In this document: positions 3,001 to 26,435 of the stretch, piece by piece
Layout of the letters: each line of letters opens with the position of its first letter
Position numbering within the stretch: the stretch's first letter is position 1
IMG/VR virus record: IMGVR_UViG_3300032305_001842
Span: 1 to 26,807 of that record
Length of the DNA: 26,807 bases
Direction: 5' to 3' (one strand)
Source: a virus
Taxonomy: Duplodnaviria > Caudoviricetes
The notes under the pieces: generated by a model
Databases searched by the model: none
What the model saw: the letters and a program-made list of their open reading frames with translations, nothing else
What the model was told of the DNA's origin: nothing
Program-made: the position numbers and the translations under genes

Positions 3001-6000
3001 GGCCAAAGCCTGGATCTAAACTGGTGTATGCTCCAGCAGTTGGACGTTTTGTGCCGTATGCATTATCTGCACTCAATGTACCAGTAAGGCCGCTAACAGT
3101 CATGTTGCGCAAGCCGGTGGCATTGCGTACATAGTACATGTCTGACAACAATGATCCGCTAACTGCATTGTTGTACAATGTGACTGCACGACGTGTTTTG
3201 TAATTTCCAGGGAAATTTGTATCATACACCAACGCATCGATGTAAGTTTCCATGTCTTTAATGATATTAGCATTACCTGTATACGTTACAACCATAGTGC
3301 CGCCAGATGCAACATTGCTTAATCCTAGAACAGTTCCGTTAAACTGCTGAGAAATAGTAAATGTTGTACCAGTTAGACTAGTAGATGTTACATAGTATGT
3401 TGTACCCGCAACAATATTGCCGCCAATAACAGTTCCAGAGAACACAACAGGGTCACCAGCTAACAAATTATGTGCTGAACTGGTTGTAATAACGTTGCTG
3501 GCAATACTTTGACATGTGCCTCTATTGACTGATTTAATATACGCATCTGCTTCGTATACTAAGAATTTTTTATTAGCACGTAAAATTTCAGCGCCTTTGA
3601 TTGTTGAAAGCGTGTTATTATATGTTGTTGTGCCGCTGGTCACTAACAATCCATTTACAGTTGTTGCGATTGTTGAACTAGTAGTTGTCCACAAGGCAAC
3701 AGCACTGCCGTTATAACTAGCAGTGACGGTTAACTGTGTTGCATTTACTACTGATGCAATCCAATAAGTTTTATAAGCCTTTAGACCGCCGGTTGCTGAT
3801 GCAAACACAATAGTCATACCAGCTGCCATATTAGCTGTACTTGTTACTGTTACATAATTTGTACTAGTTGTTGTAGCAGTTGTGGTTGTTGTAATTGAAC
3901 CAATAATTGAGTTTGTTGCATCATTGATAATTTCACCGGCTGCTACAGTAAATCCTGTTGCGACATATGATTCAGCTTTGGCTCCAATTAATGTAATTGA
4001 TGAGATAGTTGCACTGTTCTGAGAATTAATATCATTGATAATCGCCTGTGCAGAGGTGTTTGCAGAATTATAACGGCGTGCCGCTTGCAAACTATTAAAG
4101 TTAGTACCCAATACCATGTCATAGCTTAGTGCATCAACTACTAGGCCCGCATCACGGATAGTTAATGTATCACTAATGTTGTATGCTTGGTAATATTTTC
4201 TAATCCAACCATATGCATCGTTTGCAATTTCTGTTCTTGCGCCTTGCAATGAATTGTAAGCGGATTGTAGTGCAGATGTTGCCAGTGCTATTGAAGCTGC
4301 CTGTGAAACTGTTGCAGGTGCCGTTCCGTTAGTTGACCAATCGATAACATCCTGCACACGAGCTTGCGCAAAAGTTGCAGAGCCTGCTGATCCTGCTGTT
4401 CCAGTAGTAACTTGTGTTGCAGTATTTCCAGCTGATACGCTGACTGCTGTTTTTAGAATAATTTGTCCAACAACAACTTTTAATCTTGCCAGGGCGGCAG
4501 CAGTTGCACCAACATAGCCATTAACAATTTGATTAATTCCTAATGACCAATATGCACTGCCGTTAACTAGGCTGGCTTGGTTGCCACCGTAGGTCATATC
4601 ATACTGGAGACTGTCTAGTAGATAGTATATATCACGCAGTGTAGATGCTTGATTGTCTGCACCAATAGTGCTCCAGTTAAATCCGCCTGTAGTGTAACCA
4701 TTTAAAAACGCTTGAATTTCTTCACGGATGAATTGATAGTTTTGTACAATCTGTGCTTTGCCATCACCGTATCCTACTAGATAACTTGAATTGTAACCTG
4801 TTGGATTTGTAAATGTAAATGCCGAACCACCGTTGGTAACACCGGTCATTGTACCACTAGCGGCTGTGAATGTAATTGCACTTCCACCTTGTGAGGCACT
4901 GATTGTGATAGTAGCCGCATCCACAACTGAAACTACCCAGTACAGTCTATTGGCAACCAATGTACCAAATGCTGTTCCAGATAATATTAGTGTGTCGCCA
5001 GCAGTAATTTTAGCTGTGCTATCAACAGTTACACTGGTTCCTGTTGCAATTGCTGTCACAGTAATAGATGCTGAAATGCCGTTTTTAATAAACTGATTAA
5101 TTACTTGCGCACTGGATACTACACTATTAACAGCGGCTTGGCTACCGGTGTCGCCAGTAAAGCCCAAGTTAAGAACGTTGCTGTTAACTGTACCGGCAAC
5201 TGTTTGCGGGCCTGCTGTGGCATTGGTATAACTTACACTGGTTGTTGTGCAGGCAGTAACAGTATAACTACCGTTAAATCCTGCTGGTGTCACACCAGCA
5301 ACATAAATTGTTGAACCTACAACAAACGGTGCTGTTGTTTGTGTAGCAAAAGTTAGCGTGGCAGTACCTGCTATATTGCTGGCACTAGTTGTTGCTAGAT
5401 TCTGTAAATTGCCGCTGGTTGCTGTGATAGCGGTATTGGCCATCAAGTTAGACAACTGGCTCTTGATTCTAGTTAATCCTTGAATAGATCTTAATTTATC
5501 ATTAGATAGATTAGGATTAGAAAAAGCAGGTTGAACCACAGTACCACGAAGTTCATCACCGACTATAGCAGTGTATGTTGGAATTACGATAGGTAAAATT
5601 TCGCTAAATGTTCCTGTCTTAACATTGATTGTAGTCTGAGGATAAATTGGAACTGGAACTGATGTAGTATTGCCTGCGGTAAGTCCTGATGTGATAATAG
5701 TTAATAGGTTTGAAACAACTGATGATGTTCCATTTTCTGCAAGCAACGATGCATCTTTGATTTGCAATGCTTGATTTCCGCCAGCAACACTATTTAAAGT
5801 TTGATAATTGCTAGCAGGAGTTGATTGTGCTAATACATTGCCAATAAGTGTTGACATATATGTTAGTGCTGATACAAATGCGGTTATGTCTCCAGCAATA
5901 ACACCAGATACATATGCATTGCCTGCGGCATTATAGTAAGCATACAAATTAGTAACAGTGAAACTTGTTCCGCCACGGCTAATATCATTGGCTAGTCCGT

Positions 6001-8495: not shown

Positions 8496-11400
8496 TTATT
8501 CATCAGTGTTTGCGCCGCCGCTAAACGAACTATTAAAGAATGCCGCTGCCAACATTGTTCCATTTATACCGCCTGTTTTTCCGGCTGCACCTGTTCCGCC
8601 AGCTCTACCTTGAGTAAAGTTAACTGTTCTTGGAACATTAATTGTACTTAGGGTTGAGGAGAAAATTCTGTTCGGGCCGCCAATTCCAACAGTACCAGCA
8701 GTTACTTGACCTGCTGTAGCGTTTGCTCCACCACCTGCAACGTTTCTAGCCAAATAAGTTTTAATTGCTCGTTGTGTTGGTATGATGCTGTCGCTATTTG
8801 CTGTAAAATAACTATCTGTGCTAAACTGATTAATAACAATCGCATTAGGTCCAACGCTTAATCCGCCAATGGTCAAACTTTGCAACCCTTGCAAGCTGAA
8901 CTGATCAGCACTAATTGTAACAATCCCTGATGCCTGTTGAACTCCGAACAAATTGCCAACTAAGAAATTACCATCTTGGTCTGTACTTGTTTGGAATACC
9001 CGGCCGCCTGCACTTTCTGTAATCTGTCGATAATTTAATGAAGTTGATACATCAACATTAGGATAGTTAGTAGTTGCGGCATTGCCAGTACCAATTAACA
9101 AGAAATCGTGTCCAGTGATACGACACTGGCTATATTTTTGTCTAATAGTCAGGCCAATACCGTGTCCTGGTGCTTTTGTTATGGTAAGTGGCGGTGATAT
9201 TTGGAACAAATATTTAGTAGCTCCTAAAGTTGTAATAACAACCACCCGATACTGTACAGGATCGCCTGAAATATTCAAGGCAGCTCCTGGCGTCGGTGCA
9301 GATGCTAATCCAGTTACTGATAAAAATTTTGCTGGTTGGAATATATCTGCATAACCATTACCAGCAATTGTTACAGTAGTTGTTGACGTTCTATAACCCG
9401 TGCCTCGATTACCAAATGATGGCTGGCCCAGTACACCTAGTCCGACTCTGACAGTAGAATACATCGGTGTAGTAATACTTGGATCTATTATATTAACTGC
9501 TACAGATCCAGCTGACACTGCCTGCATGTTAGTAAGGCCAACTGTTAGTGAAGTGTTTATAGTATAGCTCGTGCCTGTTATTTCTGTACTAGGTACTGTC
9601 TGAAATTGATTTATAGTATACAGTGTACCGGTTACACTCTTGCTTCCGCTAGTAGCTGCCTGGCTTAGTGTAAATGTTGGGCTTGTTCCGCTTACTATAT
9701 ATGTTCCGGCCGTTATGCCTACACCTGTTACCATCATTCCTACTGTAGGAATTGTGCCGCTGTTGTATGTTAATGTTGTAAGTCCGGCTCCTCCTACAGT
9801 TCCAGTAAATGACACTGAGGAGATTGCAGTTATTATAGTTCCTGCCGATATATTATTACCTACTAGTACAAGGCCAACTGTTAGCGCAGTGGATGGAACT
9901 GATAGAACATATAATCTATAACCATCTGTACTACCCGTAAACGACACTGTGTTTATTTGAGTAACTGTTGGAGAAATTAAACCAGTACTGCCGTATATTG
10001 TTTGTCCCACTTGCAGTGGTAGTGGCAATGAAGATCCTTCATTTATACCAGTTACTGATAACGTAGTGTTCGAAATCTGGCCAGCAAATGATATGACAAA
10101 ATTGCTAGTTTGATAATTTGATCCCGGTTCCCATATTTTAACTGCACCAATCTTACCTGATGTTATTGCCGCTCTGCCAATTGCCGGTGTTCCGGTAATT
10201 ATGTAATTAGAAATATTACTATCACCAGCAATTATCCAACCAGCAATGCTTGATAAATTGCCCCAGCAGACTGTTGTTCTATTTGTTTCACCAGAGACAG
10301 CAACTAATTTCCAATCTGATCCATTAGGGCTTTTGGCAACAAGTGTTCCAGTTCCGCCAACTGCGACAAATTGGCCGGCACCGTACGCTACACTGTTCCA
10401 GTTTCCTGTTGCTGGCAAGTTGCCAGTGTACCAAGTAACCCCATCGAATGAGAACGCTGATTTATTTGTATTTTTTCCTACTACCACAAATCTGCCGTTG
10501 CCGTATGAAATGTTGCTCCAGGTTGCTGATCCAACTGCTGGAAGAGTTGATGCAGTCCATGAAGATCCCATATCAATACTCGACGCACACATTGGAGCGG
10601 TTGCAGTTCCAACAAAGCTAATTGTAGAAATTGCACCTGCTGATACTGTTAGTACTCGAATTGATACATCGTTTGCAGGGCTAGTTCCGCCTAGACTTGT
10701 TCCTGGAATAGTAAGTTTATCACCCACAGTGTAGTTTGCACCTGCTGTAGTATTTGTTAAACTATATGTTGTGCCGTTTCTAGTCACAGTATAAACTGCA
10801 TTTGAACCCCTAACAACAATATTTGTTATAGTACCTGCGATCGGAGTTGATCCACCAACTACTGCAAAGGTAATGCTAGTATTGGCTACAAAACTTTGTA
10901 CAGTACAGCTGGTAGGTGTTCCGCCAAACAAATTGCCGGTGCCGTTAGTGGCTGTGATTGGACTGCCTTCAACTATACCTGTTGTAGCACTAACTCCTGT
11001 GATAGTTGCAATCCACGGGCTAGCAATAGTGCCTGCACCGGTCACTGCACCGATTGTACCCGTAGTACTGGCTATTGAACCGGTTGTAGTAACGTTTGAC
11101 GGTAGCACTGATGCATAAGTTGCGCCGCTGGAAATTACTACCAGTATACCATTTGCAGTGATTGATTGGTATCCAGAATTTCCATAAGCAATGTCAGTCC
11201 AGCTGGCCACCGCAGGCAGTGTCACTTGCGACCATGCACTAAGATCTGTAGATTTTGTAACAATGCTTGTGTTTTTCGCTACAGCAAAATATGTGCCATT
11301 ACCGTAAGTACAACCCGACCAACTGGTGGCAGTGTTTACTAAAGAAGTTGACGTCCATGTAAGACCATTTGTGCTTGTTGCGGCAGTATAGCTTGCGCTT

Positions 11401-14400
11401 GATACTGCTAGGAATCCCAAAGCACCATATGTAACATCGGAGTAAGCCACTGCGGCAAAGCCGCCGCCTGCGGCCCAGCTGTTACCGGTAGTGCTTCTGT
11501 ATATCCCGCCCGAAGCGCCACTGTCCACAGCAACATAGGCGCCTGCACCAAATGCAGATCCAGACCATGTTCCGCTTGGCGCAACAATTCCGCTTGATAC
11601 TGAGCTAGTGGTTGGTAGTGTAAACTGTACTCTTGGTTCAATACTGTATGTTGTAGTTGAATCCAATGCCACAGCAGCCGGAGTTCCGGACACTATATTG
11701 TCCCACCCCATTTCTATAACATTCATTATGCCAGGGCCGCTATATGCAGTCAATGTCAATGGAACAGTTCCGTTAACAGTTTCTGTAACAGTAAATGATG
11801 TCGAAGTTAAATTGGCTGGCATCACATAATAAGTAGTGCCTAATGATAATCCTCCATATATTCCTGTAGTTCTTGCAGACATCACAGCAGATAATACTGA
11901 TACAACTGTTTGGTTGGCACCACCTGCTGATAAACTAACAGTGACATTGTTTCCAAATATATTTGTAATGTAGTATGTTTGGTTGCCTGACAATCCGCCA
12001 TAAATTACACTGCCTGAAAATACGATTTGTTGCCCAACCCACATACCTGCTGTGGATGCCAGTGTGATAATGTCTTTTGTTGCAGTGATAGTTGTGCTGG
12101 CCTGTACGGTAGTAGTACTGGTTTGCCATGTGCTGCCGGCGCCTGCACCGGAAATATTACTTAGGATAAATGTAGTGCCGTTGACTATGCTGCCGCCGGT
12201 CAAGCACATACCAACTTCAATAGCACCTGATACAGTCCCAACTGTCAATATTCCAGTAGCACCTATAGATGATGATCCAAGATTAGCTGAACTGTGTGAT
12301 GTTGAAACAGTTGTAGTTACCTGTTCAATTGGTAAAAACTGAACTGGTTGATTAGCGTAAATGCTTGTCTGGCCGGCTGTTGTTATAGAATTAAGTGCGG
12401 CATTGATAGCTGTTGGTGCTGAATAAAAACTATAAATTCCTGCAGCCTGTGTTGAAAAATTAGCAGTCAATGTAACTGTTTTTGTAAGAAGATTGACAGC
12501 TTGTACAGTTGTTCCGCCAGCAACTCCAGTTCCGACTACCAGTTGACCGATGGCAATGCCTGTAGTGTCTTGTAGTACAACAATCGCTTGAGCTGATGCT
12601 CCGCCGCTTACAAACACTGTTGTATTGATAGGTGCATGTACATTGCTGACAGACCAAGATGATGCATTTCCGCTACCACCAAGATTTGCAGTAATATAAG
12701 TACCAGCGGTAACTCCAGTGCCAGTAATAATTTGTCCTACTGCTAGAGTTCCCGATGCCAGTGTACCTACCACCAGTGTGCTTTCAAATATATAACTTCC
12801 AGTTGTGGTTGCTGTGGTTCTCACAACCGTTGTAGCAGTAATTGGAGTATATGATTCTTTTGCTACTGCTATTGTTTTTGTAGTAACATGATCATAAGTA
12901 ACTACGTAACCGTACTGTCCTACTCCTGTACCCGAAGTGATCAATACTCTCATACCTTTGTATGCTGATATTGTATTGACATCACTGGCAGCAATTAAAA
13001 TTGTAGTATCATCGCCAGCTTGTGCATTGTTACTGATGCTGTTATATCCTTGACCACCTGCGGCAAAATCAGTACCTAGTATTCTAACTTCAAATACTCC
13101 GCCGTCTCTATATTCATCTCCAACTGCTACCGCATATTGTCCCGCGCCGTTAAATGCATAGGTTGCTGTGGAATATCCTTGGCCTGCGTTGGTGTATTCT
13201 AGAGCAAGAATTTTATTAGTAGCTTCGCCGATAAACACTGATGCCACTTGAGCACCTTGATTTCTATTGTTAACTGTTGCAGTCAATGCAGTTTCTGTAG
13301 GATCAAATCCTTCTGCAACACATCCAAAACTGCCGTATGATGTGTTTCCGTTAGTAGCACGAATACGTCCACCGTTCTCTGCCAGGTAACCAATATGTGC
13401 ATAGTATGAGAATACTGAAACTGCTTCAGTCAGTGCTCCACTTCCGGTACACCAAATGCCAATACCGTCGCTGATAACCTGAGTAAAGTCGTTAGATACG
13501 ATAGATCTGTTTCCAGCGCCGTGTAGTGTTCCGTCAATCTTTAATCCGGTACATCCAAAACCAAATGTTGTTACGTTTTGTATGTAAGGGGATTTAGAAG
13601 AAATCTGTACTGTAGCATCTGATGGGCCTGCACCCGGATCCAAACTCACATAAGCGCCTGCTAATGGGCGTTTAGTATCATAGAGATTTTGTTGAGTCAA
13701 TCCACCATTTAAACCTCTTAAGGTCATATTTCTAATGCCGCCAGCATTGCGAACATAAAACATATCACTAAGTACGTCGCCACCATATACTATCTGTGAC
13801 TGGGCTGTGGTGTTTGCTAATGTTACTGGAGTACTACTGCCTAATGTTGCTGACACACTAAACTGTGTTGGGGTCAGTGTGCTGCCAATGACGTAGTACA
13901 ATCTATCAGAATATAATCCTGCAAAAGTTTTGATATTGGCTGTCATTACACCAATAGCATCAATTTGAGGCATAATGGCAAGGAAATCTGCAGTCGTTGA
14001 TATTGTAATGGTAATTCCTGAAAGTACTTCACGGACATAGTATTGTGTTCCTGCAACTAAATTACCAAATGCTGTTCCAAAGAATACGATAGGCTGTCCT
14101 GGTTGTATTCCCACATTGCTTGTTATTGTTACTACACCGCCGGCTGACGATGTAGACAATGCTGATACTACTATGCTTGCGCTGTTAAATCTGATAGGAG
14201 TACCGTTTCTCATATTGGCAGTTGTTGTTACTGCAATTGCATTGTTGCCAGCTGAGAACGACATAGCCAGCGGGTTGGCATTGGTTATTAGATTTGTTAT
14301 GGTTGCGCCGCCTGCGGTTGCGCTGACTGTTACATAATTTCCAGGAACTGTACCGATAGATGTAATATAATATGTTCCAGCAGGCAAATTGCTTGCTGCC

Positions 14401-17400
14401 AAAGACGTGCCAGTTACTACAATCTGTGATCCGACTGCCAAATCCGCTGGTGAGCCGCCTGTGCTTATATAAACCTGGCTAGGAGTTAGTACACTTGTAA
14501 TTGTACCTGTTACTATTTTATAACTGGCAGTTGCTGTTTGATTGATTGTTGCATACGGTTGGATGGTTGTTCCGCGAAGTTCATCACCTGCCAATGCAAC
14601 TCCAGCTGGAATTGAAATTGGTAACTGCTCGCTGTAGAGTCCTGTTTTGATAAAAATTGTTGCAGGGCCTGTTACATTTGCACATGCATATTTAACAGTG
14701 GCATATGGTGCGTTTAATGTTAGGCCGTATCCCGGGGCATCTGTTCCGTTGGTGCTTACATAATACACTCCTGGAATTGAACCAAAATTGCCCCAGTAGA
14801 CTGCTGGCAACGGTGTCGATCTATCAACTTTTAATGTTGTTCCGTTGGCGCCGATTGCTAAATTTGTGTTTGCTCCGTTGCTGTAAACTTGTAGATCACC
14901 TGGATTTTGTAGAGTTAACCAATTGTCACCCTGAGCATACTTGACCCAATGTGTTGCTGTGCGCACAGTGGCACTGCTCACATATGCGGCAACATTGGTA
15001 CTGGCAACAGTTGCTTGTGAAACTGACGCTGTTGTTACTTCATACGTTCCGTTATATGAACTGGGATTTGAATTTGCAACAGTAATAGATGTTCCTACAG
15101 GAAACGGTGTCGATGACTGAGCTGTAAAATTAAACGTGACGGTTGAGCCGGTTGTGTTTACAGATGTTATAGACAACAATGATGCTGTTGGATTTAAATA
15201 AGGGCTGGCGGTAGAAGTAGCAGTATGTTTTATTAAACAGCTATATGCAGTTGCATAAAATGTTGCAACATCGCCTGGCAAGTACGTTGTACCAGTCACC
15301 CAAGGACCTTTCCACTGCATGCTCGGTACTACTAAAGTCCAGTATGCTGTGTTAGTAGTTTCTTGTCCAATATTATCTTGGATACAAACATATAAGTAAC
15401 CGCTTCTTCTTATAGTGTCACCGACCAAATATGTTGTGGTTGCACTCCATTCTCCACGAATGTTATAATTTGTTTGTAATAAATCCCACGAAGCTGAACT
15501 GGTTGAAGGTGTTTGACCTACGTTGTTTGTTACCTTACTGGTATACTGATATCCGCCATATGTTACTACATCGCCTCGTGCATATGATTCTGTAATTGAC
15601 CAAGTGTTTGCGTATTCTAAACCTGGAACATAGATCGTAAATAAATTTGTATCTATAACATTTGTAGACGTGTGATATACTGTACAGATGTATAAATTTG
15701 CGCCGTACGTAACAACGTCATTAATTTTATATCTAGTAAAGTTATTCCACTCTCCGCGATTTTCTATACCACTGTGAACAGTGGTCCACTTGCCTTGATC
15801 AGTTTCTAATCCCAACGTACTGCCTAAAAGCGGACTAATTACAATTCCGCCACCATTAGTTGTTGTCGTAGCATCACCGTAGAATGTATTTCCTATAACA
15901 TAGGGATATGCTGGTTTCTGTGCAGGATCAAGTGTGATAAAATAAGCATAGGTTCCGTTTGGATAGTCAGGAGTAACGCAATAACGACCATTCTTGCTGT
16001 CAAGATCTTGTCCTCCAACAAATGTATAATCTTCAGCAAACATACCCAGTGGATATGTTGCATTAACGGGAGGTGTTACGCCATTGGCTGTTCTAGAACT
16101 GTTAATATTATATCCGCCGCCCATTCTTCTAACAATAGAACCAGAGCTCATTGCAGTTCCGTATCCAAACGGTCCGTAGATCGGATAGCCGTCTAACGCC
16201 CAGCCAACAATTTTACTGTGTCCGTCTGGGAATTGTAGTGCGCTGTCAATGTATGGGATTAAACTGGCATCAGCAAGACCGGTTGATGTTGTTGAGCCAG
16301 CAACATGTCCTAACCCAGATACCCAATTGTCTTGGAAACTGAAATCAACATAGTGGTATTGTCCGTTAGATTCAGCAACGCCGCCTGCTAAATCTTGACC
16401 AAATGTATAATTATTTGTTTGGCCGGACTGATATGAAATATTATAGTGCCAGTTGGGTAAAAATGATGCTTTTCCTGTTGGCACATTGTTTGAAGCTGGA
16501 CTAAAAATTGCCACGCCGTTGAGCCAATAACCGACAACTCCGTTACCACGAGATACCGCAGATCCTGCAGCCACGTTTGTTCCACCGCGAAGGCTCCATG
16601 TTCTATTATAATTTTGAGCATACGGCTGTGTAGTAGCTGATGGGTTTCCGTAACTGTGATAAGGTAGTCCGGATGATTGTAAATTAATTGTGCCGCCAGT
16701 AAATGTCCAAGATGTTGATTCAGGTACACGATTAGGACCAAGTTCCAGTGCTGTTGCTGAACTGTTTTGATCAATACTTGTTGTTGCTACTAGGGTAGCA
16801 GGACTAGTATGTCCGGTTACGCACTTGTAAACAATGCCGCCGTATCTAACAACATCACCAACTTTGTATCGTGTATTCACGTTCCAATCAGTTTTCCATT
16901 CGCTGTTGTATGTAATAGCATCCCACTTGCTTTGATCAGATTCTAGTCCCAAGGTGATTGTGGTACTGCTGGTGTGGCCATTGTTACAACGATATATTGT
17001 TGCTCCATATCTAACAATATCATTTTTTCTATATCTAGTTGATACTGCCCAATCTTTGACCCAGTTGTCTCCAACTGCATAGCTTGCCCATTTGCTTTGA
17101 TCAGCTTCAAGTCCGCTTTGTGCTAGTCCAGCAATAGTAGCAGTGGTCACGGGAGTTACTGGTACGAATGTTATTGAAATGTATTCAGCAATAACTGTGT
17201 ATGCTGAGCCGGCAAAGTCGGCAAGCGTATTCCAATTTTCAGGACTTGCGATTAAGTCTGTAGGAATTAGATAACCAGTTCCACCAGTGATAGTGTAACT
17301 TTGAATTGCCGCACGTTTAGTAAATGTATATGTTAAGGTAGCAACAACACCTGTTGATTTATTTCTAGAATTAATTGTTGCTGTAAATGTACGTCCGATT

Positions 17401-18089
17401 GGCTGGGTGTTTAGAACATTTAGTAATGTTGCACTTGGATTGCTGATAACTAAACCGTAATATGTTGCAGTATTGTCTGTACCGTAAACTACTTGCCCAA
17501 GGCCGTGAGAGTTATTGCTGTTAAAATCTGTTGTGATTGCAAATGTGCCGCCTGGAGCACTGACAACTGGACTGCTATAAGTCACACTGGTATTACTGCT
17601 TGATACTACAACAAACGTTCCGTTGAATCCTGCTAATGATACACCTGCAATTGTTACCGTACCACCTGTTTTATATAGAGTCAATCCTTGATCAGGGAAA
17701 GATGCTGTGGCAATAGATCCAGTGCCGGTAATGGCGCTCAATGTTAAAGTTTTACTAGTTGGCACCAAAGTTGCGCTGGTATGCGAAGTGGTACAAAGAT
17801 AAACAATGCTGCCGTATTGTACAATATCACCAAGCTGATAAAAAGTGCTAGGTTGCCATGCACCGTTCCACTCGTAACCATCAAACCATAATACCCAGCG
17901 TGGATCTGCATTATTATACACGTCGACTGCGTAAAAATCTGTATAGAAATTAGGCGACGCAGTGTGCGCAACTAGACATACATAGGATTTTCCACCGTTT
18001 CGAACAATGTCGTCTTTGAGGTAAAGGGTACCTGTTGACCAGGTATTTTTCCATGTAAATCTTATTCTGTTTATCTTAAAATCGGCCAT
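8496..18089 (-). CDS. Giant modular virion/fibre protein B (3197 aa): CBM5/12-like repeats, inserted YHYH domain, probable beta-helix core, beta-propeller, nested beta modules
   Basis: Uninterrupted ORF rich in Thr/Gly/Ser/Ala/Val. The second ATG (18089) is preferred: better spacing from GAGGT, and it aligns with MAEFK of the paralog. Confidence 0.93.
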   Translation of the reverse strand: MADFKINRIRFTWKNTWSTGTLYLKDDIVRNGGKSYVCLVAHTASPNFYTDFYAVDVYNNADPRWVLWFDGYEWNGAWQPSTFYQLGDIVQYGSIVYLCTTSHTSATLVPTSKTLTLSAITGTGSIATASFPDQGLTLYKTGGTVTIAGVSLAGFNGTFVVVSSSNTSVTYSSPVVSAPGGTFAITTDFNSNNSHGLGQVVYGTDNTATYYGLVISNPSATLLNVLNTQPIGRTFTATINSRNKSTGVVATLTYTFTKRAAIQSYTITGGTGYLIPTDLIASPENWNTLADFAGSAYTVIAEYISITFVPVTPVTTATIAGLAQSGLEADQSKWASYAVGDNWVKDWAVSTRYRKNDIVRYGATIYRCNNGHTSSTTITLGLESDQSKWDAITYNSEWKTDWNVNTRYKVGDVVRYGGIVYKCVTGHTSPATLVATTSIDQNSSATALELGPNRVPESTSWTFTGGTINLQSSGLPYHSYGNPSATTQPYAQNYNRTWSLRGGTNVAAGSAVSRGNGVVGYWLNGVAIFSPASNNVPTGKASFLPNWHYNISYQSGQTNNYTFGQDLAGGVAESNGQYHYVDFSFQDNWVSGLGHVAGSTTSTGLADASLIPYIDSALQFPDGHSKIVGWALDGYPIYGPFGYGTAMSSGSIVRRMGGGYNINSSRTANGVTPPVNATYPLGMFAEDYTFVGGQDLDSKNGRYCVTPDYPNGTYAYFITLDPAQKPAYPYVIGNTFYGDATTTTNGGGIVISPLLGSTLGLETDQGKWTTVHSGIENRGEWNNFTRYKINDVVTYGANLYICTVYHTSTNVIDTNLFTIYVPGLEYANTWSITESYARGDVVTYGGYQYTSKVTNNVGQTPSTSSASWDLLQTNYNIRGEWSATTTYLVGDTIRRSGYLYVCIQDNIGQETTNTAYWTLVVPSMQWKGPWVTGTTYLPGDVATFYATAYSCLIKHTATSTASPYLNPTASLLSITSVNTTGSTVTFNFTAQSSTPFPVGTSITVANSNPSSYNGTYEVTTASVSQATVASTNVAAYVSSATVRTATHWVKYAQGDNWLTLQNPGDLQVYSNGANTNLAIGANGTTLKVDRSTPLPAVYWGNFGSIPGVYYVSTNGTDAPGYGLTLNAPYATVKYACANVTGPATIFIKTGLYSEQLPISIPAGVALAGDELRGTTIQPYATINQTATASYKIVTGTITSVLTPSQVYISTGGSPADLAVGSQIVVTGTSLAASNLPAGTYYITSIGTVPGNYVTVSATAGGATITNLITNANPLAMSFSAGNNAIAVTTTANMRNGTPIRFNSASIVVSALSTSSAGGVVTITSNVGIQPGQPIVFFGTAFGNLVAGTQYYVREVLSGITITISTTADFLAIMPQIDAIGVMTANIKTFAGLYSDRLYYVIGSTLTPTQFSVSATLGSSTPVTLANTTAQSQIVYGGDVLSDMFYVRNAGGIRNMTLRGLNGGLTQQNLYDTKRPLAGAYVSLDPGAGPSDATVQISSKSPYIQNVTTFGFGCTGLKIDGTLHGAGNRSIVSNDFTQVISDGIGIWCTGSGALTEAVSVFSYYAHIGYLAENGGRIRATNGNTSYGSFGCVAEGFDPTETALTATVNNRNQGAQVASVFIGEATNKILALEYTNAGQGYSTATYAFNGAGQYAVAVGDEYRDGGVFEVRILGTDFAAGGQGYNSISNNAQAGDDTTILIAASDVNTISAYKGMRVLITSGTGVGQYGYVVTYDHVTTKTIAVAKESYTPITATTVVRTTATTTGSYIFESTLVVGTLASGTLAVGQIITGTGVTAGTYITANLGGSGNASSWSVSNVHAPINTTVFVSGGASAQAIVVLQDTTGIAIGQLVVGTGVAGGTTVQAVNLLTKTVTLTANFSTQAAGIYSFYSAPTAINAALNSITTAGQTSIYANQPVQFLPIEQVTTTVSTSHSSANLGSSSIGATGILTVGTVSGAIEVGMCLTGGSIVNGTTFILSNISGAGAGSTWQTSTTTVQASTTITATKDIITLASTAGMWVGQQIVFSGSVIYGGLSGNQTYYITNIFGNNVTVSLSAGGANQTVVSVLSAVMSARTTGIYGGLSLGTTYYVMPANLTSTSFTVTETVNGTVPLTLTAYSGPGIMNVIEMGWDNIVSGTPAAVALDSTTTYSIEPRVQFTLPTTSSVSSGIVAPSGTWSGSAFGAGAYVAVDSGASGGIYRSTTGNSWAAGGGFAAVAYSDVTYGALGFLAVSSASYTAATSTNGLTWTSTSLVNTATSWSGCTYGNGTYFAVAKNTSIVTKSTDLSAWSQVTLPAVASWTDIAYGNSGYQSITANGILVVISSGATYASVLPSNVTTTGSIASTTGTIGAVTGAGTIASPWIATITGVSATTGIVEGSPITATNGTGNLFGGTPTSCTVQSFVANTSITFAVVGGSTPIAGTITNIVVRGSNAVYTVTRNGTTYSLTNTTAGANYTVGDKLTIPGTSLGGTSPANDVSIRVLTVSAGAISTISFVGTATAPMCASSIDMGSSWTASTLPAVGSATWSNISYGNGRFVVVGKNTNKSAFSFDGVTWYTGNLPATGNWNSVAYGAGQFVAVGGTGTLVAKSPNGSDWKLVAVSGETNRTTVCWGNLSSIAGWIIAGDSNISNYIITGTPAIGRAAITSGKIGAVKIWEPGSNYQTSNFVISFAGQISNTTLSVTGINEGSSLPLPLQVGQTIYGSTGLISPTVTQINTVSFTGSTDGYRLYVLSVPSTALTVGLVLVGNNISAGTIITAISSVSFTGTVGGAGLTTLTYNSGTIPTVGMMVTGVGITAGTYIVSGTSPTFTLSQAATSGSKSVTGTLYTINQFQTVPSTEITGTSYTINTSLTVGLTNMQAVSAGSVAVNIIDPSITTPMYSTVRVGLGVLGQPSFGNRGTGYRTSTTTVTIAGNGYADIFQPAKFLSVTGLASAPTPGAALNISGDPVQYRVVVITTLGATKYLFQISPPLTITKAPGHGIGLTIRQKYSQCRITGHDFLLIGTGNAATTNYPNVDVSTSLNYRQITESAGGRVFQTSTDQDGNFLVGNLFGVQQASGIVTISADQFSLQGLQSLTIGGLSVGPNAIVINQFSTDSYFTANSDSIIPTQRAIKTYLARNVAGGGANATAGQVTAGTVGIGGPNRIFSSTLSTINVPRTVNFTQGRAGGTGAAGKTGGINGTMLAAAFFNSSFSGGANTDE
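10668..10708. repeat. 41-bp exact direct repeat, copy 2
   Basis: Identical to 1649-1689. Confidence 0.95.
14940..18050 (-). repeat. Eight CBM5/12-like repeats at the N-terminus of giant B, three of them interrupted by insertions
   Basis: WSTGTLYLKDDIV, WQPSTFYQLGDIV, WAVSTRYRKNDIV, WNVNTRYKVGDVV, WNNFTRYKINDVV, WSITESYARGDVV, WSATTTYLVGDTI, WVTGTTYLPGDVA. Confidence 0.78.
15870..16720 (-). other. YHYH-family domain inside giant B
   Basis: SGLPYH, GVVGYWLNGVAIF, NGQYHYV, HSKIVGWALDGYPIYGPFGY, DLDSKNGRYCVTPDYPNGTYAYFIT and YPYVIG are typical YHYH-protein motifs. Confidence 0.8.
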
Positions 18090-18116
18090 CATCTACCTCA
18101 AATTATGTAATTATTA

Positions 18117-18824: not shown

Positions 18825-20609
18825 TTATCCAAAAATTAATCCTGATAAAATACCAATGTCGTATGCTTCGTTGCTTGTAATTCCAGAAGCCGAACCTGCT
18901 ACGCTGGCCCATCCTGTTCCGTTATAAACTTCAACATACTGAAAATCTGTATTAAATCTTACCATTCCTACCTCAGGAGCACCGGGCCTCTGAGTTAGTG
19001 TATTACCTGACGGAATTACAACACCGTTAGTTCCTGCAAGTCTAACGTATCCTGTACCCGTTTCACTGAATTCTGTTACTGCATTTGACTGCGTATTAGT
19101 AATTGTACTATTATATATCCTTAAATTGCCTGCTACAATTCCGCCTGTTCCGGCAGTTGTAAGATTAATATCAGTGTTAGTTACCACTGTACCAATGGTA
19201 TTTCCGCTGATTGAAAGACTACTTGTATTTACTTGAGGACTGTATAGTTTGGTGCTATCTATGGTTGCTGCCAGAGTGCTGTTGGCATAAAAATACAAGG
19301 TATGATCGTTTGCGCCCGGGGTAACTTCAGGTAAAATATAAGTTGTGCCAGCAACATCAGTAACTCCACTAAGCTGAATCCAATAGCTTCCAGTATAGCC
19401 CTCGTAACGAGTTCTATCAGTATTATAGCGAATCATCCCGTTGGCTGGGCTTACCGGGCGTTGAGCATCTGTTCCTACAGGAATCTTAAATGCGTTTGTA
19501 GAATCAATTATAACACCGCCAGTTCCTTGTGGTGTTAGGGTAATATCGCTGTTAGCTGAAACACTAGCGATAACATTTGTTGTTATTTTAATATCTTGAG
19601 CTACTATACTTCCACTGCCTGCGGCTGTTAACACTAGGTCTGTATTGGCGGGAGTTGTAGCAATTGTGTTTCCGGATATTGTAATCTGAGGCAGTTGTAA
19701 TATACCAGTTGCTGTGATATTTCCGGTAACTTGTGTATTTCCAGAAGTTGTAAAGTTACCTGTTAGGTTTAAGTTACCTGTTTGAGTAACTGCTCCAACT
19801 ATGTTTGTGTTACTTAAACTACTTGTTCCGGTAACAGTTAAAGTACCACCTACTGCTAGATTTTGCGCAATATTTACGTTGTTAGAAGGAAGTGAAATTA
19901 TTCCAGAACCGTTGGCCTGCAATACTAAATTACTATTTGTAACTGATGTAGTAATCGTGTTACCGCTAATAACAATGTCTGCCCAGTTGATTGTAGTTGC
20001 TTGTAGTGTTTGAGCCCAGACTGTTTTCCAGCTTTTGCTAGAAGATCCTAAGTCGTAGGTATTGTTGACATCCGGTATAATATTACTAGTGATATCTGCA
20101 TTAAAAGTAATGCTATCTGTAGTTGCATCACCTAATGTTAGATTGCCGTCTGCGGTAATATTTCCGGTAGCATGCAGGTTGCCGTTGACAAGTGTATTGG
20201 AATTTACAACTACTTGCCCAGTTCCATTGGGAGATAAATTAATATCTGAATTGGTAACAGTGCTTGCTATTACATTGCTTGATACTTGTAGATTACTGTC
20301 AATTAGAGCGCGAGCTTGATAAACTACAGCATTACTTCCGCTGGGAGTTAATGTTATTGTTGAGTCTCGGCTTGAGATTGTACTGCCAGATATTGTAAAA
20401 TTAGCAATATCTGATTGTGTTGTTACTTGTAAATTTGTAGTTTTACTAGTACCAACAATGTCAAGGTCGTATCTAGGTGAAGTTGTATTGACACCAACGC
20501 GGCTGTTTACAACATCCAAATAGAGAAGGCTCGTCTCGAAGGCTAAATTTACTCCGTTACGAAGTAAGTTATCCTTTAAGAGCGGCCCTGAAATTCGACC
20601 AACAGCCAT
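18825..20609 (-). CDS. Fibre-like virion protein, 594 aa; paralog of 20756-22687
   Basis: Start moved to ATG 20609 (AGGGAG RBS; MAVGRISGPLL aligns with the paralog's GRISGPLL). About 7 repeats of I-x-x-N-x-I-x5-N-x-D-x2-L-x3-G-x-G and two GM(I/V)R(Y/F)NT..E.Y.G..W motifs. Confidence 0.9.
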   Translation of the reverse strand: MAVGRISGPLLKDNLLRNGVNLAFETSLLYLDVVNSRVGVNTTSPRYDLDIVGTSKTTNLQVTTQSDIANFTISGSTISSRDSTITLTPSGSNAVVYQARALIDSNLQVSSNVIASTVTNSDINLSPNGTGQVVVNSNTLVNGNLHATGNITADGNLTLGDATTDSITFNADITSNIIPDVNNTYDLGSSSKSWKTVWAQTLQATTINWADIVISGNTITTSVTNSNLVLQANGSGIISLPSNNVNIAQNLAVGGTLTVTGTSSLSNTNIVGAVTQTGNLNLTGNFTTSGNTQVTGNITATGILQLPQITISGNTIATTPANTDLVLTAAGSGSIVAQDIKITTNVIASVSANSDITLTPQGTGGVIIDSTNAFKIPVGTDAQRPVSPANGMIRYNTDRTRYEGYTGSYWIQLSGVTDVAGTTYILPEVTPGANDHTLYFYANSTLAATIDSTKLYSPQVNTSSLSISGNTIGTVVTNTDINLTTAGTGGIVAGNLRIYNSTITNTQSNAVTEFSETGTGYVRLAGTNGVVIPSGNTLTQRPGAPEVGMVRFNTDFQYVEVYNGTGWASVAGSASGITSNEAYDIGILSGLIFG

Positions 20610-20736
20610 GTACGCTCCCTTGACCCCGTGTTTCACGGTTAACCACATTTGCACTTGTCGTGCGCATCCTTTCGGCTCTTTGCGGGTTTACCACAGTTTA
20701 ATCATACAAAAAATGGTCGTTCTTTGTAATCAGTAG
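20610..20736 (-). promoter_or_regulatory. Structured ~127-nt 5' leader, candidate cis-regulatory RNA
   Basis: Hairpins UACAAAGAA/UUUUUUGUA, UGUGG-UAAAC-CCGCA, CC-GAAA-GG, GCAC-GACAA-GUGC and CCGUG-AAA-CACGG lie between the late promoter and the RBS. Confidence 0.55.
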
Positions 20737-20744
20737 TATTTATC
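20737..20744 (-). promoter_or_regulatory. Putative late promoter (GATAAATA)
   Basis: 1 mismatch to TATAAATA; 11 nt after the stop of the 643-aa gene. Confidence 0.6.
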
Positions 20745-20755
20745 GGATTTTGAGT

Positions 20756-22687
20756 TTAGCCTATTACAATGGCCATGATATTTAGAATGTCGGTAACTTC
20801 TGCGGCACTGAGCTGTGCGCCTGCTACTCCTGAGATGGGGATCCAGCCATTGTCGCCGGCAGCTGGATTTCCTGAATAAATTTCTACTTTATCAAGCGTA
20901 GTATTAAATCTAGTCATGCCTGTTTCAAAGACTGTGGGCCTGCCGCCCACCCCGGCAGTTGCTCCCACTGGAAGAGTAACTGCGGTTGTTCCGGCAAATC
21001 TAACAAATCCCGTACCTTGATTTACAAAAGTTGTAATAGCATCAGTAGTTGTATTTTTGATGACGCTTGTAGTGCCTGTTGAAACATATGTTTGTATATT
21101 ATTAAAGTTTACTTTGCCAGTTCCGGTAGCAGTCAAATTGACATTGTTAGCACTGACCTTGTTGCTGATAATATTAGATGTAAACGAAACGTTACCTGCA
21201 TCTAGTCGATTGGTAGTTACTCCCACACTGGTCATGGTTGTATTAGCTAGGCCGTTGGTGGTAAATCTTATAGTTTTATCGTTATTACCCGGAGTTAGTT
21301 CAGCAGTAATACCAGTAGTTCTAGATACACTATACACATTGTTAAAACTATCAAATCCATAAGATTGATAGCCTTCGTACAGTCCTGTTGTTCTATTGAG
21401 CCTAACATTACCTACACTAGTCAACACTTGATCTGAGTTGTTTGAGTAGGGTATTTTTACAAAACGTGTTGAATTGACTACTAGAGTTTTAGTAGGACTA
21501 ATAACAACACTCTTGTCTAAATCTGTTGTGGGGCTCGCGGCAGTGTTAGTAATTCTACTATTTTTTATAGATAAACTTTCTAAAACTACACTGCCTGTTC
21601 CTGTCGAGCTAAGAGTTATATCAGCATTTCCAACAGTTGTGTTGCTGATAACATTGTTTTGAATTTTAAAATTTGGAGCCGCAATATACGAGCTTGTCCC
21701 AGTAATAGCAATATTATTGTTAGCAAATGTGCCGTTTATAAAAGACGACCCTGTTTGATTGTATGCGCCAGCCAGTACACTATCAAGAGTATATGCCCCA
21801 CTATCAAAACTCAACAAACTGCCGTCAAGCAACGTGCCGCTGATATTAACAGCGCCAATTATTCCTGTTGCAGCCAGTGTGGTTGTGTTTGTTACTGCTA
21901 CTGTTCCGCCAACTGCTAAGTTTTGCCCCAACACCACACGATTATTAGGTATGTTTATAATACCAGCGCCGTTGGCTGATAGTATCATACTTTGATTAGT
22001 AGTACTAATTGAAATTACATTATTGGTAACTGTAAACTCAGCTATAGATCCCGTGGTCAGCGTTGCTGTATTGGCGTATAATGTTCTCCAAGCTAGATTT
22101 CTGCCACTTGGGCCACTACCTAAATCGTAAGTATTAGTAACGTCAGGAATTATATTACTAACTACATCTGCACCAAATGTAACGTTGTCAGTATTACCGT
22201 TACCTATAGTTACATTGCCATCAAACGTGACATTGCCCGTTGCGTGTAAATTTCCATTTATTAAAACTGATTTGTTTGAAATCAGTCGGCCAGTGCCGTT
22301 GGGTGAAAAGTTAATGTCACCGTTGGTTGTGGTGTTGCTGATTGTGTTGGTGCTAAGAACAAGTTGCCCAGCTTGTAACTTTGGAACAACCACTGTTGGT
22401 GTGTTAAATTGACTGGGTATTAGATTGATCGCATCACTAACATTTTGAATTGTGCTAGCATTGATTGTAAAATATCCCAAGTCTGCTTGAGTATTAACAA
22501 TTTGATTTGTGGTATTTGTTAGACCGTTGACTAAAAATTCGCGAGTGGGGATATCAGTGTTGATACCGATATACTTGTTTGTTACATCAAGGTACAGCAG
22601 TTGAGTGTCAACTGCAAGATTGGAGCCGTTACGTTTGAGATTGTCTGCTAGTAACGGGCCGCTTATTCTACCTAGTTCTCGCCCCAT
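20756..22687 (-). CDS. Fibre-like virion protein, 643 aa
   Basis: AGGAG RBS. Collinear with the 594-aa protein (GRISGPLLxDNL, LLYLDV, DINxSPNGTG, NGNLHATGN, SNIIPDV.NTYDLGS, GMxRFNT). Confidence 0.9.
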   Translation of the reverse strand: MGRELGRISGPLLADNLKRNGSNLAVDTQLLYLDVTNKYIGINTDIPTREFLVNGLTNTTNQIVNTQADLGYFTINASTIQNVSDAINLIPSQFNTPTVVVPKLQAGQLVLSTNTISNTTTNGDINFSPNGTGRLISNKSVLINGNLHATGNVTFDGNVTIGNGNTDNVTFGADVVSNIIPDVTNTYDLGSGPSGRNLAWRTLYANTATLTTGSIAEFTVTNNVISISTTNQSMILSANGAGIINIPNNRVVLGQNLAVGGTVAVTNTTTLAATGIIGAVNISGTLLDGSLLSFDSGAYTLDSVLAGAYNQTGSSFINGTFANNNIAITGTSSYIAAPNFKIQNNVISNTTVGNADITLSSTGTGSVVLESLSIKNSRITNTAASPTTDLDKSVVISPTKTLVVNSTRFVKIPYSNNSDQVLTSVGNVRLNRTTGLYEGYQSYGFDSFNNVYSVSRTTGITAELTPGNNDKTIRFTTNGLANTTMTSVGVTTNRLDAGNVSFTSNIISNKVSANNVNLTATGTGKVNFNNIQTYVSTGTTSVIKNTTTDAITTFVNQGTGFVRFAGTTAVTLPVGATAGVGGRPTVFETGMTRFNTTLDKVEIYSGNPAAGDNGWIPISGVAGAQLSAAEVTDILNIMAIVIG

Positions 22688-25577: not shown

Positions 25578-26279
25578 TTATTGATTTTCAATAGTTACTG
25601 TAGTACCGGCCACGGCTGCACCAAAAGTCCATTTAGCAGTTGTGCCAACATAAAATTGTGTACCGGCAGAGGTTGAGCCACCGTGTACATTAGCTGCCGG
25701 AACTAATACCGCAAGACGAGCTGTTAGTTTAGCAACAAAATATGTATTGCCGTCACTGTCAGTAGCTTTGATTGACATTTGGTTAGCATCTTTAGCTTCT
25801 GTTGTGACTAGATTACAAACTGCTGTGCCATCGCTAGTTTGAACTGTGTAGCGGCGTCCAGCAACTTGTTTGATGATATCGCCAGTGGTAACTTCACTGC
25901 CCGCCCCAATTTGTGCTTCGCACTTGATACCGTTTTGACGAGCAGTTGCGCCAGTTGTTAACACCGGAGTTAACGTTAATGTGGTTTGAGTGCCAGTACC
26001 TGATATAACTGTAGCTGTTGGAGCAGAAGTATATCCTGAACCGCCGCTGGTTATTACAACACTAGTTACTGCTCCAGCAGTTGCTACAATAGTAGCTACT
26101 GGATATTCTCCTCCGGTAATTTGTGGAGCAGAGAATGATACGAAATTACCTGTTACATAACCTGCGCTGTTACCGGTAACTACAGTTACGCTTGCAACTG
26201 ATTCACCGCCAACATTAGCTGTACCAAATGTTGCATAGTTTGTGTTAGCAAAGAATTTTTTATTTAAAGGACGTCCCAT
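25578..26279 (-). CDS. Structural protein directly downstream of the major capsid gene, 233 aa
   Basis: AAGGAG RBS; contains a VTSVVITSGGSGYTSAPT module typical of phage virion proteins. Confidence 0.88.
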   Translation of the reverse strand: MGRPLNKKFFANTNYATFGTANVGGESVASVTVVTGNSAGYVTGNFVSFSAPQITGGEYPVATIVATAGAVTSVVITSGGSGYTSAPTATVISGTGTQTTLTLTPVLTTGATARQNGIKCEAQIGAGSEVTTGDIIKQVAGRRYTVQTSDGTAVCNLVTTEAKDANQMSIKATDSDGNTYFVAKLTARLAVLVPAANVHGGSTSAGTQFYVGTTAKWTFGAAVAGTTVTIENQ

Positions 26280-26292
26280 TTTATTTTCTCCT

Positions 26293-26367
26293 TAAGAAAG
26301 ATGGCGTTCTAGGCCATACGCGGTTGGATTTCCGCATAAAATCCACCCCATGTGAATCATTACTATG
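26293..26367 (-). promoter_or_regulatory. Structured 5' leader with three tandem hairpins and an alternative pairing
   Basis: AUUCAC/GUGGAU, UAUGCGG/CCGCGUA, AUGGC/GCCAU; alternative UGGAUUU/AAAUCCA. Confidence 0.5.
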
Positions 26368-26382: not shown

Positions 26383-26408
26383 AAAAAAGGGCTCCGAAGA
26401 GCCCTTTT
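26383..26408 (-). terminator. Rho-independent terminator of the major capsid gene
   Basis: AAAAGGGCUC-UUCG-GAGCCC-UUUUUU: C(UUCG)G tetraloop, GC stem and U-tract. An A/T tract on both sides means it may be bidirectional. Confidence 0.92.
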
Positions 26409-26435
26409 AGTACTATAAAAGTAACTAAACTTAGA

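Follow-up and report, generated by a model that had tools for sequence, protein, structure and literature searches.

A conserved leader RNA with a predicted pseudoknot ahead of a fibre-like virion gene of uncultured T4-like jumbo phages

Genomic context

The window (the whole stretch of DNA analysed here, 26,807 nucleotides; positions 1 to 26,807 of IMG/VR record IMGVR_UViG_3300032305_001842) is one viral contig of 26.8 kb on which every large gene lies on the minus strand. Along this strand a gp23-type major capsid gene is followed by fibre-like structural genes, and the source is an uncultured T4-like jumbo phage from a lake. The C-terminus of the capsid protein is 69-78% identical to those of cultured jumbo phages (e.g. 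Phosso, GAP32, CBB and PA5oct); in cultured relatives, the N-terminus of the fibre-like gene described below was without a match, and the leader ahead of it was matched by chance only (E 0.6 or worse). Kindred contigs of 160-270 kb were rated 45-71% complete, which corresponds to genomes of about 350 kb. The genes and the previously known RNA that are important for the locus are:

18825-20609, minus strand: downstream gene, a fibre-like virion structural protein of 594 aa (MAVGRISGPLL) with PHROG virion structural and baseplate-wedge matches
20756-22687, minus strand: upstream paralogue of 643 aa (MGRELGRISGPLL), which shares the N-terminal peptide with the 594-aa gene, lacks the leader RNA and has GGU AGA at Gly-Arg
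26277-26357, minus strand: freshwater-2 RNA (RF02980), identified by an Rfam match, with its own TAAATA box and preceding an MGRPL gene

The element occupies the gap between the two paralogues (20610-20755, 146 nt). As stated in the initial annotation, it is the longest gap among the fibre genes, although in the window as a whole a longer one (156 nt) follows the capsid gene; the annotation had also called it more GC-rich than the other spacers, but its G + C content of 0.43 is close to the window average and those of a 17-nt and a 9-nt spacer are higher. The 594-aa protein itself had no Pfam or PDB sequence match, and no recognised RNA-binding domain appeared among its PHROG and Pfam-type domain matches; some of its homologues bear PF26696 (PTL_trimer). 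Two giant tail-fibre-like proteins, in both of which CBM_5_12 modules are repeated and one of which has a YHYH domain, are encoded at 2-8434 (>2800 aa) and 8496-18092 (3198 aa) on the minus strand, and a TAAATA box lies between their genes, 20 to 30 nt ahead of the next gene. Directly 3' of the capsid gene lies a clear hairpin that resembles an intrinsic terminator, with UUCG as its loop and a U-run (approximately 26385-26410, minus strand). A search for RegA as a candidate regulator matched none of five partial contigs, and the search's own control was likewise unmatched.

The elements of the leader and of the gene start are:

20737-20744, minus strand: predicted T4-type late-promoter-like box GATAAATA, with TAAATA at 20742-20737
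20731, minus strand: predicted transcription start (+1 = G) from promoter spacing, the sixth base after the box
20705-20728, minus strand: P1 hairpin of 9 bp (stem 20728-20720/20713-20705) with loop CGACCA (20719-20714)
20681-20695, minus strand: 5' half of the predicted pseudoknot, with S1 UGU (20695-93)/GCA (20683-81), loop GGU (20692-90) and the S2 5' strand AAACCC (20689-84)
20651-20677, minus strand: a CC-GAAA-GG arm and a GCAC/GUGC arm, both of them optional additions to the pseudoknot's long loop and absent from short-loop leaders
20640-20646, minus strand: S2 3' strand, with G20646, bulged U20645 and GGUUA (20644-20640)
20626-20638, minus strand: P4 hairpin CCG-UGAAACA-CGG (type A, one of two types among homologues), then an invariant G at 20624
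20613-20619, minus strand: Shine-Dalgarno (SD) region GGGAGCG, whose predicted partner is the CGCUCUU of 20584-20578 (duplex -10.3 kcal/mol)
20597-20601, minus strand: UGGUC in codons 3-5 (Val-Gly-Arg), which likely pairs with GACCA in the loop of P1, as judged from loop/codon co-occurrence
20578-20584, minus strand: CGCUCUU in codons 9-11 (Pro-Leu-Leu), the predicted SD partner, under leader-dependent synonymous constraint

According to the excerpted text of PMC1524935, the T4 late promoter consensus TATAAATA sits at -13 to -6, which places the predicted +1 at G20731. The sixth base 3' of the box is a purine in 134/138 leaders, and the leader is predicted to comprise 122 nt (20731-20610, minus strand). 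The initial annotation had drawn the element as 20610-20736; most of this range stands, but its first 5 nt are predicted to be spacer of the promoter, and at the other end about 30 nt of the gene form part of the element. Lake-water metatranscriptomes are among the sequencing runs that contain the stretch, and one metatranscriptome contig covers 20491-20719 (leader and gene start). Strand, ends and level are not readable from a contig, and it provides weak evidence for transcription of the leader.

Distribution

A scan anchored on the first codons of the gene yielded 121 loci among the matches listed, a sample of about 710 stored stretches, of which three were cut off. Of the 118 orthologous gene starts with enough upstream DNA, 116 bear the leader RNA; the TAAATA box and the RNA core were found together by pattern in 115 of them, and the 116th (L063), whose variant core was missed by the pattern, was counted by eye. 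The start in L036 is without the leader RNA, and a second copy on the same contig has it. In L034 only the 3' half of the knot is left; its 5' half is missing, as are P1 and the promoter box, which may reflect a deletion or a misassembly.

The reverse scan, with the RNA core only, yielded 120 loci among the matches listed (about 690 stored stretches estimated), all of which (120/120) precede the same fibre-like gene family. In the metagenome collection, 116/120 lie before this family, four are cut off and none precedes another gene; the viral and metagenome collections overlap, so their counts are not independent. In GTDB, five of 19 pattern matches are genuine, all five ahead of the same gene start, and the other 14 are not real. 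The five copies (L373, L375, L383, L385 and L388) place leader and gene start in metagenome-assembled genomes (MAGs) of four unrelated bacterial groups and are probably phage contigs mis-binned into MAGs. Each of five large contigs has one leader copy, and the window has no second one. The pooled set comprises 245 distinct leaders.

No Rfam family reached its gathering score at this locus: the Rfam 15 covariance models gave a best E of 3.7-4.7 on the minus strand, for unrelated families, and a single chance match (E 1.4) on 15 homologous loci. The earlier remark that the element could not be matched to a known riboswitch or ribozyme is in agreement with this empty scan.

Predicted structure

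By covariation, the core of the leader is an H-type pseudoknot with a predicted 3-bp stem (S1) and a predicted 6-pair stem (S2). Among all position pairs in 136 leaders, 20684:20646 of S2 ranks first in mutual information; it is canonical in 129/129 leaders with four pair types, and RNAalifold finds the S2 stem unaided. A 14-pair model, consisting of the knot and the loop-codon pairing described below, was evaluated on an alignment (A1) of 64 leaders drawn from these 136, namely that of the window plus 63 obtained with the gene-anchored scan. It has 93.3% of its cells paired, against at most 54% in slid controls, and double changes are seen in 69 cells, compared with 21 in shuffles (0/500). 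S1 is paired in 100% and S2 in 90.9% of cells; the outermost S2 pair is A-A in about half of the rows, including that of the window. On a FastTree phylogeny of 129 proteins, which has few columns and weak resolution, joint changes at four pairs compare with the changes on either side as 29 vs 28/26, 8 vs 8/8, 18 vs 16/16 and 24 vs 24/19, and the supported independent pairs agree in direction (5/5, 6/6, approximately 3/3 and 7/7). Beyond the box, 12 leader positions are invariant in A1. A putative core-closing helix would include C20696-G20624, which is found in 127/127 leaders, invariant and without covariation. In the variant leaders L030, L039, L080 and L098, the GGU loop is reduced to GC, GU or GA, and in the first three of these several S2 pairs are swapped together (e.g. 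GGAC/GUCC).

The sequence elements from which the initial annotation had built its fold are all present: hairpin 1 with loop CGACCA (P1 of the list above), UGUGG-UAAAC-CCGCA (UGUGGUAAACCCGCA, 20695-20681), the GAAA loop (20673-20670), GCAC/GUGC (20663-20660/20654-20651), CCGUG-AAA-CACGG (20638-20626) and GGUCAAGGGAG. Several of the pairings that it drew between them are not conserved. A 5-bp hairpin of UGUGG and CCGCA has its fourth pair broken in 29/61 rows, and the alternative of CCGCA with the second UGUGG is paired in 66.6% of cells only; the three-way junction and the switch between two UGUGG partners fall with these pairings. The motif UGUGGU(A/U)AACC does occur twice (20695-20685 and 20647-20637), but what had been read as a duplication is mostly the two strands of S2, and the second UGUGG is found in 13/139 leaders. 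Nor are the 127 nt nearly fully paired when folded alone: the minimum free energy structure pairs 70/127 nt with a z-score of -0.46, and 57 of 200 shuffles fold equally well (plus strand, z +0.89).

The stem of P1 is free to vary in sequence, whereas its loop GACC is conserved; the hairpin is stable, with a mean z of -2.6 over 138 P1 regions (137 distinct sequences). The long pseudoknot loop is just 7 nt in 64/129 leaders (e.g. AUGUAAG). P4, a 13-nt hairpin between the knot and the ribosome-binding site (RBS), is conserved in 127/129 parsed leaders, and homologues of type B have GGG-ACAGGAU-CCC in its place. The P4 loop may resemble a T-loop, and other loops may resemble a K-turn and a GNRA loop.

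Predicted pairing with the gene start

The loop GACC of P1 likely pairs with GGUC in codons 4-5 of the gene. The initial annotation had proposed a GGUC next to the RBS as partner, but GGUC precedes the RBS in 10/139 leaders only. Gly4-Arg5 is encoded with GGUC in 136/139 leader genes, compared with GGU at 480/1016 other Gly codons, and the Ser/Thr codon two places further on is scrambled. In a separate scan of paralogues with the same peptide, GGUC was found in 19/20 with the leader and 10/73 without it. Over the 245 leaders, GACC in the P1 region is accompanied by GGUC in 180/180 cases, and 11/11 genes without GGUC have no GACC (Fisher 2e-7, kinship ignored). Six of these 11 genes have a matched loop and the other five have none: the change GUCC/GGAC is found in L070 and L093, which are far apart on the tree, GUCU/GGAC in L490, and UCUU/AAGA in L441, L468 and L496, probably as one event.

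GGUC is kept in 54/65 leaders without GACC, including 10/10 without any P1, and the P1 loop is therefore not the sole cause of the constraint on codons 4-5; the existence of P1-less leaders indicates that the knot can function without the loop. RNAalifold finds an alternative hairpin within the coding sequence that uses the same GGUC. A fifth loop pair, between the base after GACC and the wobble base of codon 3, was rejected: its raw count is 92/113, but joint changes on the tree are 19 vs 13/11 and the independent pairs are null. Members of a deep clade (L157, L169, L184, L192, L206, L235, L242 and others) have another 5' hairpin (GAUGCC...GGCAG) and no GACC, and still have GGUC in codons 4-5, which may have another partner there. 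In L320, L321, L356 and L359, the P1 loop is UGGC instead of GACC and the genes, which start with MSQ, have GCCA in codons 2-3, a possible shifted partner of this loop.

A second helix is predicted between the SD region and codons 9-11. CCGCUCUU is present in 13/20 leader-bearing vs 2/73 leaderless genes, and CUCUU occupies codons 9-11 in 177/245 leaders. The complementarity between the SD and codons 9-11 averages -7.8 vs -5.2 kcal/mol; partner matching in this helix is slight (7/200 shuffles), and its pairing probability in the nested fold of the window copy is approximately 0.16. The real codons raise the opening cost of the start region over that of synonymous controls in 116/139 leader genes vs 25/64 leaderless genes, and the start region of the window copy is no more closed than its synonymous controls (139/300). 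The predicted SD helix is supported for the family, and only weakly for the window copy. At the sequence level, the comparison of leader-bearing with leaderless genes shows codons 4-5 and 9-11 to be under leader-dependent nucleotide constraint.

Interpretation

Conservation and covariation, both of which had been suggested as checks on ortholog leaders, are found at 116/118 starts and as joint changes on the tree, respectively. As judged by sequence comparison, the gap encodes a conserved RNA with covariation that is fixed ahead of one fibre-like virion gene. The initial reading of it as an undescribed phage cis-regulatory RNA gains from the covariation in 245 leaders, the link to one gene family, its non-coding nature and its absence from Rfam. 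The alternative of a small structural RNA is disfavoured, because the sites listed by the promoter-terminator scan include no terminator-like one in the interval from the box to the start codon, and because the constraint enters the coding sequence.

In the proposed mechanism, a late transcript would begin at 20731, and P1, the knot and P4 would form in it. Codons 4-5 would then be bound by the loop of P1, and codons 9-11 by the SD, which would close the start. These closing helices are short and should breathe, so that a bound factor would set the state. The ligand would be a protein, because the target is a single structural gene, there is no metabolic context and unpaired bases are invariant; speculatively, it could be fibre protein that is still free and unassembled, or one of its partners in assembly, and such feedback could match the supply of fibres to the binding sites on the virion. 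In this reading, to which we assign a probability of about 0.5, the leader would be a translational operator: probably upon binding of a virion protein to the knot, the start region would close and translation would be shut off. A broader proposal, which we put forward tentatively and with considerable doubt, is a phage RNA switch of a new class, i.e. a pseudoknot sensor of a virion protein or a host metabolite by which one jumbo-phage virion fibre would be metered or switched, with a kissing-loop cage on the start codon formed by the leader, the ribosome site and the first eleven codons.

A paper by Wyckoff and Casjens from 1985 is said to be tied to the autoregulation of the P22 scaffolding protein. 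That this protein regulates its own translation is stated in the accessible part of a preprint (10.1101/2022.12.13.520362). A virion-assembly protein that limits its own translation would be a precedent for the proposed feedback, although phage and protein are unrelated to those considered here. If the leader binds the fibre protein, it would exert feedback control over tail assembly. The balance among the dozens of virion parts of large phages is poorly understood, and the knot is found on jumbo-phage contigs of aquatic origin by the hundreds. Controls exist in nature, in the form of variants with compensatory changes and of paralogues without the leader, and the leader is short enough for direct probing and reporter use.

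Among the other explanations, an unlikely one is a ligand-free tuner of translation, in which the fold alone would determine how fast or when initiation takes place, either as a constant brake or as a landing pad for the ribosome or S1 through which a closed start could be read late in infection. Occlusion of the start is a trait of the family, and the end of P4, 17 nt short of the AUG, lies at what we take to be the edge of the 30S footprint; a plain brake, however, needs no invariant unpaired bases in a tertiary core, and such bases are among the 12 invariant positions. In the excerpted text of PMC3014915, the SD and/or start regions of T4 e, soc, 49 and I-TevI are held in RNA helices with a late promoter close upstream, i.e. 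they are covered by protein-free structures, and the start of gene e is freed because its late promoter removes the 5' strand. The fibre leader resembles them, as far as they are described there, in its predicted late promoter box nearby, and would resemble them in the helices predicted at its SD and start region. The T4 late promoter removes structure, whereas all paired parts of the fibre leader lie 3' of the predicted late start at 20731; its fold is moreover pseudoknotted and has likely partners in the coding sequence.

Rather unlikely is a new class of riboswitch, in which a pocket of the knot would bind a metabolite or ion and toggle the start, making the fibre conditional on the state of the host; if the leader did bind a small molecule, it would represent a phage-only riboswitch class. 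PreQ1-I, SAM-II and guanidine-III are small H-type pseudoknot riboswitches, and the leader is similar to them in that a compact knot of two stems, with conserved bases in its loops, lies close to the ribosome site; like several small aptamers, it also tolerates a variable arm. Riboswitches are carried, rarely, by marine phages according to the available text of PMC9004378. Unlike the small pseudoknot riboswitches, the leader has no covariance-model match, its SD lies outside the knot and no metabolic genes lie downstream. Every readable copy is tied to one structural gene family, and among the 19 GTDB pattern matches (14 of them not real) there is no chromosomal or metabolic-gene copy.

It is improbable that the leader is an assembly or packaging signal, which would tether the mRNA to the assembly site or enter the virion without translation rate being the main effect: it is single-copy and strictly linked to one virion protein, and the same module contains a second conserved leader, freshwater-2, but the constraint is centred on the SD and the first codons and the terminator-like site that would release a discrete RNA is not among the sites listed. 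Quite improbable is a self-cleaving ribozyme or processing site that would trim a polycistronic late transcript. The pseudoknotted core with invariant bases bears a superficial resemblance, presumably, to the first pseudoknot of pistol, but no Rfam ribozyme matched, the genetic context is single, the dedicated promoter box already supplies a 5' end, and cleavage would not need conserved pairing across the start codon region. A 13-codon N-terminal extension (MWLTVKHGVKGAY), as annotated by gene callers in close relatives, has an in-frame ATG at 20648 and was called in 8/120 of the homologues listed (one more has a shorter form), but this reading has practically no chance and was rejected, the region upstream of MAVGR being non-coding: only 8/139 leaders have an open frame throughout the last 15 codons, and the distance from core to start modulo 3 is 44/42/53.

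Relation to known RNAs

The preferred reading, a protein-controlled translational operator, has its closest analogue in the gene 32 mRNA of T4, T2 and RB69, whose pseudoknot is an autogenous translational operator (PMC3014915, in excerpt). As described there, both are H-type pseudoknots in the 5' leader of a T4-like phage, tens of bases before the start codon, and protein-controlled translation is predicted as likely for the fibre leader as well. In contrast to gene 32, the gene that would be regulated encodes a fibre-like virion protein and not the single-stranded DNA-binding protein gp32; the unstructured, A+U-rich spacer of UUAA repeats reported in that excerpt is absent, a hairpin follows the knot instead, and there is an additional 5' hairpin whose likely partner lies in the coding sequence. 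By analogy, the fibre leader would work like the gene 32 operator and yet not be a member of it, given the other gene and the lack of the A+U-rich spacer. The same excerpt states, as of 2010, that the gene 32 knot may be the sole viral pseudoknot known to autoregulate translation. The fibre-gene knot would be a second one, compact and unrelated to that of gene 32, for which autoregulation is proposed here.

The motif strings of the leader occur in no relevant paper of the literature searched. None of them was found in four supplements of Fremin et al. 2023 (PMC10690425; 8495 IMG/VR candidates), the alignments and models of which lay outside the search. Among the leader RNAs by which phages control translation, which are a known kind, we consider this one a new family, with an unusual reach from leader to coding sequence; it may already be among the automatically listed candidates of Fremin et al.

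In the literature, no papers were found on the freshwater-2 RNA motif and none on jumbo-phage leaders, and the accessible main text of PMC5737381 does not mention the freshwater motifs. Freshwater-2 shares with the fibre leader the phage group, the late structural module, a TAAATA box and a position directly before a structural gene; it differs in sequence, fold and gene, and its model misses the fibre-leader locus. Each of the five large contigs has freshwater-2 a few kb upstream of its leader copy (5/5). In all six copies inspected (the window and L390-L394), the loop of the middle hairpin of freshwater-2 is UCC/CCC and the gene opens with AUG GGA, and it is possible that this loop pairs with the gene start in a manner similar to the loop-codon pairing of the fibre leader.
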